From positions 128,001 through 192,000 of the forward strand of contig CBDCCZ010000004.1 in assembly GCA_965215005.1 (NCBI GenBank): DNA of 64,000 nt, read 5' to 3'. Positions 11,337 to 26,974 of the stretch are shown piece by piece. This stretch comes from Kofleriaceae bacterium. Its GTDB lineage: Bacteria; Myxococcota_A; Polyangia; Haliangiales; Haliangiaceae. Numbering within the stretch: the first letter of the stretch is position 1; each line of letters begins with the position of its first letter. Below the pieces are notes generated by a model. The model was not told the DNA's origin. It ran no database searches and saw nothing but the letters and a program-made list of their open reading frames with translations. The translations under genes were made by a program, and so were the position numbers.

Positions 11337-11630
11337 TCAGTGCACGATTGGCTCGTCGTCGCCGGAGCCGATGTCGATGGCGCCGAAGCGTTCCTCGTAG
11401 CGCTCGAGGTTCTTTTGCAAGGCGCGCACGAGCCGCTTGGTGTGCCGCGGCGATGAGATGATGCGAGCGCCCACTTTGGCGATGGCAGTGCCAGGCTGAA
11501 TGAAGGAGAAGTCGAGAACAAACTCATTCTCGGCGTGATTGATCAGCACGAGGTTGGAGTAACGGCCGGCTGCCGTGTGCTCGTCCATCTGGACCTGAAT
11601 CTTGGGACCTTTGCGAACATCGTCGGACAT
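11337..11630 (-). CDS. DUF3467 family protein
   Basis: GRYSNLVLINHAENEFVLDF...RIISSPRHTKRL..AL..N..RYEERFG pattern. Confidence 0.85.
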   Translation of the reverse strand: MSDDVRKGPKIQVQMDEHTAAGRYSNLVLINHAENEFVLDFSFIQPGTAIAKVGARIISSPRHTKRLVRALQKNLERYEERFGAIDIGSGDDEPIVH

Positions 11631-11788
11631 GGCGACTGTGTATCGCATTGCCGCGCCGGTGGTGGCCGTTGGCGATCGCGGCGTGCGTTGCGAACGTCAC
11701 GAGGCCGCGTCCCATGCCGCCGCTCAAGACGCGACGCGCTGGTCGGTCGCTGCGCGGAGCAAGCGCGATGACCGCGAATGGAGAGGGA

Positions 11789-11907
11789 GCGCAGCGGCCA
11801 ATCGAGCGTAACGCAACGTGCTGGGGAGGGCGGCCGGGCGAGGATTTTTGGGGGAGGGAGGTTCACCCGGCCTATATGTTGCTGCGTTACGTGACTGGCC
11901 GCTGCGC
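11789..11907. ncRNA. Candidate structured RNA, copy 1 of a tandem pair
   Basis: Nested stems 11789-11800/11896-11907, 11807-11815/11883-11891 and 11832-11841/11863-11872; two GGGGAGGG motifs. Confidence 0.55.
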
Positions 11908-11944
11908 GACGTCGCTCGAAAGCGACGTACAACGGAAAGAGGAT

Positions 11945-12066
11945 GCGCAGCGGGCGAGTTCTCTCACGAGACGGGGTGCTGGGGAGGGCGACCGGGCCCT
12001 ACTTGCTTGGGGAGGGATTCGAGCCCGGTCCTGTGGTTAGCCCCATGAGGGATCGCACCGCTGCGC
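11945..12066. ncRNA. Candidate structured RNA, copy 2 of a tandem pair
   Basis: Same basal stem GCGCAGCGG/CCGCTGCGC and inner stem 11990-11997/12023-12030; same GTGCTGGGGAGGGCG and TGGGGAGGGA-type motifs. Confidence 0.55.
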
Positions 12067-12589
12067 GTTGATACGATAACTAAACGCCGCTCGCGCTCCT
12101 GACGTTGGAGCTGCGCGTGGCGCTAACGACGCCGTCATAGACAGCGTGCGCTACCTTTGCGGCGCATTCGCCGCGTTTGCTCGCCCAACTCATTCTCACC
12201 ACCACCTGGTTCCTTCGAGCGCGGCGTTCCAATAACACCCCTCGATCGACGGCGTCCACTCCAACCAGGTGGCAAAGTTCGATCGCGTCCAACGCAGCGC
12301 AACGCGGCGACCACGCCGCTTCTGAGCGGGTCGGGGTAGGCGCGCGCGGGCTGGACACGGTCATGTCCCGCTCGCAAAGCAATCGATGTACCAAGCTCGC
12401 TACGTGCGGTAGCGAGCGCTAACCTGCCGATCCTGCGCATGCTCCCGCCCGGCTCAACCGGGCATCCTGGTGCCGCTGGCGGTTTCATTGGCCACTGCGC
12501 GCGGTTCGATCTCGCCAGTGACCGGTCGAGCAGCCACCGGCGAGCGTCACATAGGCAACATTCGGGAGTGGGCGCGCTATGGTCTGCCG

Positions 12590-13015
12590 ATGCGCGCTTT
12601 GGGCTTGGATGTCGGCATGAAGACCATTGGCGTGGCGGTATCAGACGAGCTCGGCCTCGCGGCGCATCCCGTGACGACTCTGGCGCGCCGCGGAACGGCG
12701 GCTGACGTCACGGCGGTGAGCGAGCTCATCAGCGCGCACGCCGCCGGCGCCGTGATCGTGGGATTGCCCCTGGACTTGCACGGTCACGTCGGTCCGAGAG
12801 CGCGCCGGGTGCGGGTATTTGGCGCCGCGCTGGCCGAGCGACTGCCCTCCGACGTCACGTTGGTGGAGTGGGACGAGCGGTTTTCCACGGTAGCGGTCGA
12901 GCGGGTGCTGCTCGAGGCAAATCTCTCTCGTCGGCGGCGCAAGGAGGTCGTTGACAAGCAAGCCGCGGCATTCATCCTCCAGGGGTGGCTCGACGCTCGC
13001 CGGTCGACGCTGTAA
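12590..13015 (+). CDS. ruvX: Holliday junction resolvase-like / pre-16S rRNA nuclease RuvX (YqgF)
   Basis: [27 protein letters not shown] and [11 protein letters not shown] motifs. Confidence 0.95.
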
Positions 13016-13027
13016 CGTCGGTCGACT

Positions 13028-14116
13028 ATGCCCAAGCGGTCGTTCCGCATAGCCCTGGCGATTGTCGTTGGCTCGCTGCTATTCGTTGGCGCCGCCGCGA
13101 TCTACTTCACCCAGCGCGCGCTCAACTATCCCGAGACCCCGCACGCGGGCACCGGCGCAGAAGTTCCGGTCACGATCGAGCGAGGCATGAGCTTCCCGGA
13201 AATTGCTCAGCGCCTGACCGAGAACCAGATCATCGACCGGCCGCGCTGGTTTCGGCTGTACGCGATGCATCGCGGCGTGACGACCAAGATCCGAACCGGT
13301 GATTACGTCCTTGCCGACGACATGAGTCCTCGCGAGGTGCTCGACGAGCTGCTCGAAGGCGTTCAGGACGTGAGCGTGAGCGTGACCATTCCCGAAGGTC
13401 TGCACATGCTCGAGATCTTCGCCATCATCGAAGCAGCGGGTATCGCTTCGGCCGCTGAGCTCGAAGCGCTGGCGCGGGATCGAGCGTTTCTCGACGCGCG
13501 TGGCATCGAGGGCGACAACGTCGATGGTTACTTGTTCCCCGAGACCTATCGGTTTCCCGCGCCGAGTAAGCCCGAGCTGGTGCTCGACACGATGATCAAG
13601 CAGCACCGCATGGTCTGGAGCCAAGTCAAAGAAGCCAATCAGCGCTCCTACGAGCGGCTGCGCGACCAGCTCGGCTGGACCGATCGCGAGTTCTTAGTCA
13701 TGGCGTCCATCGTCGAAAAGGAGGCGGTAGTGGACGAAGAGCGGCCGCGCATCGCGCAGGTATTCATGAACCGCCTCACGATGCCTAGCTTCACGCCACA
13801 TCGCCTCGATACCGATCCGACGATTCGCTATGGCTGCATGGTGCCGGTGCAAAAGAGTGAGGGTTGCAAGATTTGGGATCCCACGCAGCGGTTGCGTCGC
13901 GCGCAGCTCGACGATAAGGACAATCCTTACAACACGTATCAGCACGATGGCTTGCCACCAGGTCCTATCGCCAATCCTGGTGAAGAAGCGATGGCCGCCA
14001 CGCTGAGCCCCGACGGCTCGAAGTACCTCTACTTCGTATCGCGCAACGACGGCACCCACGTTTTCTCGCGCAGCCGCGCCGAGCACGAGCGCGCTGTCGA
14101 TAGCTTTCAACGCTGA
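13028..14116 (+). CDS. mltG: Endolytic transglycosylase MltG
   Basis: [40 protein letters not shown] and YLYFV motifs. Confidence 0.95.
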
Positions 14117-14317
14117 GCATTGCCTACCTCACGGCACACGTGCCTGCACAGGCGCGCGCCGCATGGCGTTGCGATCTGTGGCCAGGGTGCTACGCCGTAA
14201 GAGCAAAGGGGGCGGCTAACGGTGCGTTACTTTTACCGCTCCGCGGCGGCGTGGTACCGTTTTACGAGCAGCCCTCACCGCTTCCGTGTTTTCGACTCCA
14301 CACACCGAGGAACGAGC

Positions 14318-16360
<2,043 letters not shown>

Positions 16361-16370
16361 ACCAGCGCTC

Positions 16371-16586
16371 ATGGATCCCAAAGGTGTCGGCCCGGTCACT
16401 ATCGAGCTGAACAACACCGCTGCTCAGCTCCTCGCCAGCCTGTGCGTGGAGCTGGGCACCGATGATGCGGTCGGTGTTTTGTCTCGGGCACTGGGGCTCT
16501 TCGAGATGGCCCAGCGAACGCGGCGTCGCGGCGGCCGGCTCGTGTTCATCAACGAGCGCGGCGAGGAAGCCGACGTGGTCATCTGA
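16371..16586 (+). CDS. Small hypothetical protein, possibly ribbon-helix-helix-like
   Basis: 71 aa; AGGAG upstream; lies inside the operon; VTIEL strand followed by two helices. Confidence 0.6.
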
Positions 16587-16622
16587 TCACTGGCCAACCG
16601 GCGCTATGCGGGGATTTCACAA

Positions 16623-19231
<2,609 letters not shown>

Positions 19232-26146: not shown

Positions 26147-26974
26147 TCAGTCGTCATCGGGCAAGCGGAAGCGAAACGTCCACACGATCGTCGAGGCAAC
26201 CGGACGATCGCTGGTGTCGATGGCAGGCTCGAAACGGAGTTTTTTTGCGAGCCGGAGCGCGAGCTCGTCGAGTCCATATCCAAGCCGAGTCACCAGCTCA
26301 CGCTCGACTACACGGCCGCGCGCATCGACCAACAGGCGCACGTTGAGGGTCCCTTCGACCTGCCGGCGGCGCGCTTCGGGAGGGTAATCTTTGCCCGCGT
26401 CGAAGAAATCCGTGTCGCCTATGGGAACGGCGCGGCGCTTGAGCGATGCCACGGAAACCGGGCGAGGCGCATCGCTGCTATCGCCTCCGCCTCCGCCGGT
26501 ATTGGTGCCGCTGCCGCCACGACCCACCGCGCGCGTGGTAGGTCGGCCAACAGCCACCGGAGGCCCGCTGCCGGCGACGCCGAGGTCGGGCATCTTGATG
26601 ACCGGAGCCGGTGGCCCCGCGGCCGACGGGGTGCCGGCCGCAGCTTCCGTGGGAGCCTGCGGCGGCGGTGCCGTGGCTACGGGTGGTGTGGGCGCAACGC
26701 GCTTTGGCTCAGGCTCGTCGATCGGCTCGGGTTCAGGCTCGGGCTCGGTAATCGGCTCGGGTTCAGGGTCGGGCTCGATGATTGGCTCAGGTTCGGGGTC
26801 GAGCTCGGGCTCGTCAACCGGCTCGGGCTCGATGAGCTCGAGCTCGATCGGCGGCTCCGGCGGCGGGCGCCGGTCGAGCCACCGGCTCGTCGCATAGAGC
26901 CCTCCTCCGAGCGTCGCGTGTATTGCCAGGGTCAAGAGAGGAGGCACCAGCCGCGACGACCACGAGCGATCCAT
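26147..26974 (-). CDS. tonB: Energy transducer TonB
   Basis: TM helix with His, EP repeats, and [17 protein letters not shown]-terminal domain. Confidence 0.9.

Follow-up and report, generated by a model that had tools for sequence, protein, structure and literature searches.

In the genome of a Kofleriaceae bacterium (Haliangiales), two rod-like elements stand in tandem between the gene for a DUF3467 protein and ruvX, and this locus raises the question of whether they represent an RNA, from which strand such an RNA would be read, and how it would act. The window referred to below is the whole stretch of 64,000 nucleotides that was analysed.

Position, fold and strand of the two units

The spacer of 959 nt is flanked by the DUF3467 gene (11337..11630, minus strand; PF11950, E 2.4e-23), located downstream of the predicted transcript, and by the divergent ruvX gene (12590..13015, plus strand; PF03652, E 4.5e-40) followed by mltG (PF02618). 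The latter opens a region at 13028-19231 of the window, in which it precedes a prkA (yeaG)-yeaH (DUF444)-spoVR operon. Among the 120 matches listed for the DUF3467 protein, the two named homologues were from Haliangium sp. and a Kofleriaceae bacterium (69% identity), which places the host among the Haliangiales-type myxobacteria; homologues with 76-79% identity were also present.

Unit 1 (11789..11907, minus strand; 119 nt) and unit 2 (11945..12066, minus strand; 122 nt) were both found where the earlier note on this DNA had placed them, with starts 156 nt apart. Unit 2 is a rod with a GCGC/GCGC closure, an apical stem of 10 bp, a C-rich apical loop of 21 nt and a C-rich 3' internal loop, and unit 1 has the same layout, including the length of the apical loop; a hairpin of 8 bp with a UUCG loop (11909..11928, minus strand) links them. 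As that note had also described, the units have a common basal stem (an identical 9 bp), middle stems that diverged in sequence, and two motifs each, giving four GGGGAGGG at 11823, 11851, 11981 and 12009. On the minus strand these were read as CCCUCCCC, and were predicted to be unpaired in the internal loops of unit 1 (11823..11830; p 0.88) and unit 2 (11981..11988; p 0.88), and in the apical loops of unit 1 (11851..11858; p 1.0) and unit 2 (12009..12016; p 0.85). The 42-nt core common to both units was 79% identical. These observations confirmed that the units are real, tandem, RNA-like rods. The whole stretch was also recovered without a difference in one public contig, which may be its own source.

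A covariance model from unit 1 only recovered unit 2 with a score of 58.9 bits (E 1.4e-11), and neither this model nor blastn detected a third copy in the 6.2-Mb genome; the genome-wide search proposed in the earlier note therefore gave two copies only, and not a high-copy repeat. GGGGAGGG itself occurred 89 times in this genome (both strands counted), and pairs 10-60 nt apart were seen twice, both in the units, versus 0.033 expected for the whole genome. A strong simple hairpin at 26797-26849 of the window scored 24.4 bits with the unit model, and resembled the basal stem only. When two spans including the units were searched against Rfam at E 10, nothing came near the gathering score; no tRNA or tmRNA was detected. 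A blastn search with the units against 40 relatives gave short chance matches only, and the unit model matched none of the 146 remaining genomes of the order. In metagenomes, a double-motif scan returned at least 116 stretches, two of which were fragments of R1, the RNA of relatives described below, and no window-type unit was found in the 100 of them searched with the unit model. Of 147 genomes, 62 matched the same pattern, mostly through repeats or by chance and a few at the R1 locus. Several of the matching loci (L029, L036, L038 and others in genus g14) carried a REP-like dispersed repeat with two GGGGAGGG around a short hairpin, present in several copies per genome and apparently unrelated to the units. 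Among viral contigs, 0 of the 24 pattern loci were R1, 0 unit-motif matches were obtained, and there were no DUF3467 loci. The source genome was the sole member of its genus among the genomes compared, and since the unit model had no matches in other genomes of the order or in the metagenome loci searched, only two sequences underlie the covariation of the units.

The earlier note had left the strand open, and had considered that some positions favoured the plus strand. Compared with 200 shuffles, the folding z-scores of units 1 and 2 were -11.33 and -4.97 on the minus strand and -4.80 and -3.03 on the plus strand. The energy of unit 1 was reached by 0 of 871 GC-matched random genomic 119-mers, and that of unit 2 by six. 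The ensemble diversities were 0.9 and 4.0 on the minus strand (nearly single-state) versus 17.6 and 28.2 on the plus strand. Of the 10 pairs of the apical stem on the minus strand, six were identical between the units, one had a one-sided change, three had two-sided changes and none was broken, so that the compensatory change in the earlier note was present and had been understated; on the plus strand two of the 10 pairs were broken. All four CCCUCCCC motifs were also unpaired (0.85-1.0) inside the whole predicted transcript of 767 nt, in which the basal pairs of both rods had p 1.0, and the G motifs of the plus strand were unpaired at 0.35-0.70. Because of the far better fold, the preservation of all 10 apical pairs and the four unpaired CCCUCCCC, the minus (C-rich) strand is likely to be the RNA strand of the units. 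Both sides of the stems changed after duplication with the pairing and loop motifs kept, indicating selection on structure.

Predicted promoter and transcript

Upstream on the minus strand, the spacer contains several features that the earlier note had missed, as it had the RNA of the relatives at this locus. A sigma54 -24/-12-type promoter (GG-N10-GC; 12378..12393, minus strand) was predicted, with a putative start near 12367. Its core score was matched by 154 sites in the genome, and its full 16-column score (6.1 bits) was below that of nearly all relatives. Approximately 310 nt separate it from unit 2, so that the two are not directly adjacent. A palindromic enhancer-like box of the TGGCyA-N7-TrGCCA type (12518..12536, minus strand), a predicted sigma54-activator site, scored highest in the spacer with a relatives-only matrix (12.1 bits; 135 genome sites were as high), and reached only 3.6 bits when the matrix was stricter. 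Taken singly, the box and the promoter are weak to moderate matches. The spacing between box and promoter was 143 nt; 24 of 28 relatives have a spacing of 143-148 nt. The box was identical at 18 of 21 positions to the same-locus boxes of the relatives G006 and G019. In the whole genome, a box and a promoter stood 100-200 nt apart in 10 cases versus 2.4 expected, two of them at 143-148 nt. Furthermore, the 13 nt leading into unit 1 were identical to the lead-in of the same-locus rod in G019. Strong copies of the box were also found elsewhere in the source genome (G000:C3:81360 (+), C3:315726, C23:7902, C20:29974, C10:170620, C10:196165 and C10:199421), one of which sits 69 nt before a sigma54-type site; these copies may form a regulon of the activator of the box.

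Between the promoter and the units is a third long rod (12159..12319, minus strand; 161 nt) without a C-rich loop on the minus strand (z -5.18; -4.57 on the plus strand), for which the 146 other genomes of the order gave short scattered matches only. It was rejected as 6S RNA: the 6S of this genome (G000:C4:61521-61690 (-)), found with a profile of relatives (E 3.7e-31) and missed by a genome search with RF00013, is located elsewhere on the contig, outside the window. The units were rejected as 6S (RF00013; a rod of approximately 180 nt) on the same grounds, and a separate 6S was also present in R1-bearing genomes.

The five spacer ORFs that were scored gave codon scores between -0.23 and -0.50, versus -0.13 for the first percentile of real genes, and look non-coding by this measure; among the candidates, a 94-aa ORF behind the promoter was rejected as a protein (negative codon score, no homologue and no Pfam match). 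No intrinsic terminator was found in 11600-12620. From about 12367, the predicted minus-strand RNA would cover approximately 580 nt up to where unit 1 ends, and its transcription may continue into DUF3467.

A conserved RNA at the same locus in relatives

Of the 147 genomes of the order, 103 were found to have DUF3467 and 135 ruvX, and the two genes frequently stood as the divergent pair seen in the window. A covariance model built in this analysis from the ruvX-spacer RNA of relatives (R1) describes a locus with a sigma54-type promoter, a leader of 90-170 nt, a rod of approximately 125 nt closed by GCGC/GCGC, and a terminator with a C-rich hairpin loop and a U tail. The rod has an invariant central bubble (UUUCGACUC / UGAGGCAA..AGUA), and both its apical and its 3' internal loop are C-rich. 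In an alignment of 36 RNAs, in which kin sequences are not independent, 96.3% of cells were paired and 20 of 34 pairs had changed on both sides; 0 of 500 shuffles reached this covariation, and slid controls were 29-44% paired. R1 was present as a single copy in each of 102 of the 147 genomes, a tally that includes the unpublished G067 and G068, both of which were left out of the alignment; by genus, the counts were 82/91, 13/17, 3/3, 3/3 and 1/1. R1 was not found in 134 genomes of the class outside the family. In all 29 top loci checked, ruvX was within 1.5 kb of R1. The orientation was the same as that of ruvX in 40 loci and opposite in 23, with three lacking ruvX in the locus, and a U tail was found in 65 of 66. 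From the occurrence of either orientation and from the U tail, R1 would form a transcription unit of its own, with the C-rich strand as the RNA.

Ten of the relatives' loci had no match near the gathering score in Rfam, and no description of the R1 RNA, of its family and the two-rod architecture, or of any sRNA from Haliangiales was found in the literature searched, to which subscription journals mostly did not belong. On sequence evidence, R1 is an undescribed, strongly covarying, single-copy and putatively sigma54-dependent sRNA gene, and is a larger finding than the units of the window. Examples are L059:1012-1175 (-) and L108:649-817 (-), with 100 more genomes, and this RNA merits a family entry of its own.

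More distant forms were present at the same locus. G003 has the promoter, a C-rich rod and a terminator in a divergent form. In G006 and G019, the order is promoter, gene, GCGC-closed rod and C-loop terminator; the gene driven by the promoter encodes a CUB/Kazal protein of 559 aa, and its 3' region contains the rod. This gene (L302:332-2200 in G019 and L303:358-2225 in G006) is near-leaderless and encodes a lipoprotein-like N terminus, and is directly followed by the C-loop rod, a second C-rich hairpin and the terminator; the rod is possibly a 3'-UTR-derived sRNA. In Myxococcaceae (L325-L329), a divergent sigma54-like promoter was recognised by eye upstream of ruvX and before a protein gene, which suggests that the position of the promoter may be older than its cargo. 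Among R1-less genomes, the spacer contains a small conserved ORF of about 100 aa in genus g16 (L052-L055), and a short lipoprotein-like ORF in family f3 (L233-L234).

The window has several features in common with R1: the spacer, an enhancer-like box and a sigma54 promoter at a matching distance, and a GCGC-closed rod of approximately 120-125 nt whose apical and 3' internal loops are rich in C. On the other hand, R1 has one rod, whereas the window has two plus the unrelated third rod, and the 5' part before the rod is approximately 300 nt in the window versus 90-170 nt in R1. The invariant bubble of R1 and its CUC/GAG stem are absent from both units, with no canonical copy elsewhere in the genome, and no counterpart of its C-loop terminator with a U tail was detected at 11600-12620. 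Neither unit was matched by the R1 model at E 10 or, using nhmmer with or without bias correction, by the profile of the relatives. Conversely, the unit model scored 9-16 bits on R1 rods, no better than on plain hairpins. When compared with R1 rods, the units ranked 7th and 155th of 1037 C-rich genomic controls. A descriptor of the layout in relatives (a GCGC-closed rod of 100-140 nt with an unpaired C-rich loop) passed 36 of 39 of them (including the two unpublished loci), and was loose, with 96 hits in the source genome; by energy density, the units were among the top four distinct hits. In a RuvX+MltG tree (500 columns, 54 taxa, FastTree), the R1 genera and G003 formed one clade (0.989) with the source genome outside, in a weakly supported sister group with G006, G019 and genera without detected R1, and most sister genera show no R1. 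Owing to the failure of the model and HMM searches and to the missing invariant bubble and terminator, the homology between the units and R1 is positional only; the units are therefore regarded, on these comparisons, as positional counterparts of R1, not members. The units are most likely a duplicated, remodelled form of an undescribed Haliangiales sRNA gene, which would act by C-rich anti-RBS pairing.

Known analogues, candidate mechanism and alternatives

Multiple C-rich single-stranded motifs also seed RBS pairing in Listeria LhrC, which is multicopy, and in Staphylococcus RNAIII; the units resemble them in having several such motifs, whereas there was no Rfam match and the phyla and promoters are unrelated. 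The nearest analogue of R1 and the units is Pxr (RF01812), an sRNA of Myxococcus xanthus that blocks the development of fruiting bodies. Pxr is reported to have a sigma54 promoter, to act without Hfq, to be processed from longer forms, and to have tandem paralogs in Cystobacter (PMC5568312, PMC5684412, PMC10217877). Its C-rich SL1 loop is essential (PMC5684412), its contacts map near Shine-Dalgarno (SD) sequences (bioRxiv 10.1101/2025.09.11.675593), pxrA has been proposed as a target (PMC11928866), and an origin within the Myxococcales lineage is described (PMC5568312, PMC8538405).

Pxr is a myxobacterial rod with a C-rich apical loop, and the units have such a loop too. Short motifs at the 5' end and in the loop are common to Pxr and the R1 RNAs, which have a similar terminator (alignment z 2.9-4.6), while the units had no alignment similarity to Pxr (z 0.3 and -1.0). 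Pxr is located at pxrKR, the units at DUF3467-ruvX; Pxr ends in the SL3 terminator with a U tail, whereas the units are single rods of 120 nt with two C motifs and no terminator. RF01812, which gave 129 bits with Myxococcaceae controls, matched neither the units nor the R1 locus of G023 (best E in the source genome 7.1, elsewhere), and had 0 matches in 151 genomes of the phylum in a run without a positive control. A Pxr model built here picked out neither R1 rods nor units. The 15 best PxrR matches (42-47% identity) were all on contigs other than that of the units, and the R1-type box was absent from all 25 authentic Pxr loci of the comparison set. The units were rejected as Pxr: no RF01812 match, another locus and enhancer, and no terminator. 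The R1 model gave a weak match at the Pxr position in six of 12 Pxr loci (best E 0.023). Since terminator-only R1 matches scored as high as these, Pxr was not among the matches of a genome-wide R1 search in five Myxococcaceae genomes, and the reciprocal model failed, homology to Pxr is not claimed.

sX13 (RF02232) resembles the units in its stable stems, C-rich loops and independence of Hfq, and differs in being composed of three short hairpins in 115 nt, in another phylum, instead of long rods. In the Xanthomonas report, action of its C-loops requires G-rich motifs close to the start codon and does not involve Hfq (PMC3771888). The sX13 model had no match in the units; one R1 member gave a weak match (E 0.15, 27.8 bits) below the gathering score of 50. 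For the Cuckoo/RSs0680 RNAs of Alphaproteobacteria, the source describes co-transcribed tandem siblings behind one promoter with variable stems and a conserved anti-SD loop, CCUCCUCCC in two to four hairpins of 24-50 nt, and Hfq binding (PMC4615179). The logic of siblings is like that of the units, while the motif differs: the units have CCCUCCCC in rods of 120 nt, and no Hfq was found. They were rejected as cuckoo RNA, their loop sequences lacking the CCUCCUCCC short-hairpin layout and Rfam giving no match.

The reading that we favour, with slightly better than even confidence, is that the units are tandem duplicates in a minus-strand, sigma54-driven non-coding RNA, whose CCCUCCCC loops would block G-rich ribosome-binding sites without Hfq. 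In the proposed sequence of events, the units would descend from the same ancestral RNA as the R1 gene of relatives, and duplication would have been followed by stem changes with the pairing kept. A sigma54 activator at the palindromic box would switch on the transcript, which would run leftwards from about 12367, at the sigma54 promoter, through the end of unit 1. The long basal helices may release or protect two rods of approximately 120 nt (RNase III is encoded), and the exposed CCCUCCCC loops would cover the G-rich ribosome-binding sites of mRNAs by base pairing, so that translation would be blocked in an Hfq-independent manner. Hfq was found in none of five genomes of the family, including the source genome, in searches with working positive controls. 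At the SD position in the source genome, an enrichment of 5- to 7-fold was found for the complementary hexamers GGGAGG and GGGGAG, which ranked 41st and 68th of 1207 and mark only approximately 1% of starts (14 and 18 of 1537); this would give selectivity. Sibling sRNAs with C-rich, anti-SD-like loops are the best-supported reading, and the interpretation in the earlier note is partly supported.

Plain duplex energies of the loops did not separate start regions from coding controls, and two of the three candidates tested were not conserved. The gene for an AAA_25 ATPase with a G8 RBS, the top-ranked target for both units, had no G run in five of five orthologues, and pilC had a G-rich RBS in one of 10 RNA-bearing versus five of 19 other genomes; both were rejected. 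An IHF-beta paralog remains (G000:C28:1663-2007 (+), L449), the RBS of which is a run of 5-8 G. A run of at least 5 G was found in 11 of 14 clade members, namely nine of nine with the RNA and two of five without, versus a background of 35 of 3439 starts in the source genome, and a tenth RNA-bearing genome agrees. Its interaction ranked only 57th and 187th of 3439, and the paralog was not found in five tested genomes of the largest R1 genus. Given this modest rank, its choice after the fact and these five genomes, it is no more than a lead. IHF is an established helper of enhancer looping in sigma54 transcription. A more ambitious picture, to which we give a small chance, is that Haliangiales would have their own family-wide, sigma54-dependent, Hfq-free sRNA switch that is an ancient relative of Pxr or its functional equivalent. 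In the lineage of the window, this switch would have been rebuilt as a multi-rod precursor, cut by RNase III into sibling sRNAs of approximately 120 nt, and would feed back on sigma54 transcription by repressing the IHF-beta paralog with its conserved G-run RBS.

Among other explanations, a rather unlikely one retains the same minus-strand RNA and assigns its C-rich loops to the binding of a protein or the sponging of another G-rich RNA in place of mRNAs, with duplication doubling the sites. Two identical motifs per rod in a fixed geometry (21-nt loops, 10-bp stem), the resemblance of the invariant bubble of R1 to a protein site and the lack of a conserved mRNA target that stands out are consistent with this, whereas the bubble was lost in the window with the C motifs kept, the complements of the motif are enriched at SD positions, and the closest characterised analogues act on mRNAs.

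We also consider it unlikely that the units are unrelated to R1 and were gained independently, as a private repeat or insertion remnant behind a conserved promoter. The failure of all model and profile tests of homology would be explained, and the cargo of this promoter can change, as there are protein genes behind it at the same position in G006, G019 and Myxococcaceae. However, an R1-like length, the GCGC closure and C-rich loops on the strand of the promoter would then be coincidental, the units stand in the top four distinct hits of the layout descriptor, and the genome has only two copies.

Quite improbable is a function of the rods as a cis-acting 5' leader of DUF3467, the tandem leader of the earlier note. 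The rods are followed by DUF3467 after 158 nt, on the same strand, and no intrinsic terminator was found in between; nevertheless, the R1 counterpart is terminated in 65 of 66 loci, occurs in either orientation to ruvX and points towards ruvX, away from the 5' end of DUF3467, in 40 of the 63 loci with ruvX, and the full-length prediction had no alternative fold joining the rods to the DUF3467 start. Should transcription run through DUF3467, the rods could be both leader and sRNA.

A functional plus strand, with G-rich loops as a CsrA/RsmA sponge or G-quadruplex, is very improbable. This strand also folds (z -4.8 and -3.0), carries four G tracts per unit, and has a sigma54-like site inside unit 1 that scored 9.3, above the 6.1 of the minus-strand promoter. 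However, two of its 10 apical pairs break, its motifs are half paired, the promoter and terminator of relatives fix the C-rich strand, and CsrA (PF02599) was found in none of the five family genomes, including the source genome (92.8% complete), with positive controls. The CsrB/RsmZ-type sponge was rejected for the same reasons, and the GGA/CsrA option of the earlier note, in which the motifs were read on the other strand from CCCUCCCC, falls with it. It is equally hard to credit that the units are a decaying, non-functional duplicate of a formerly functional RNA, as the lost bubble and terminator and the weak promoter match might imply, against stems that changed on both sides with pairing and loop motifs kept.

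For the reading as tandem anti-RBS rods, the class of mechanism is already known, so that what is new is a family and an architecture, not a principle. The window presents a possible remodelling, in which the promoter and C-rich loops were kept, the rod was doubled, and the bubble and terminator were dropped. R1, with its promoter and candidate activator box, offers an entry point to post-transcriptional control in abundant predators, mostly uncultured, that lack Hfq and CsrA. If the Pxr-like reading is true, a Pxr-like gatekeeper would not be confined to Myxococcales.
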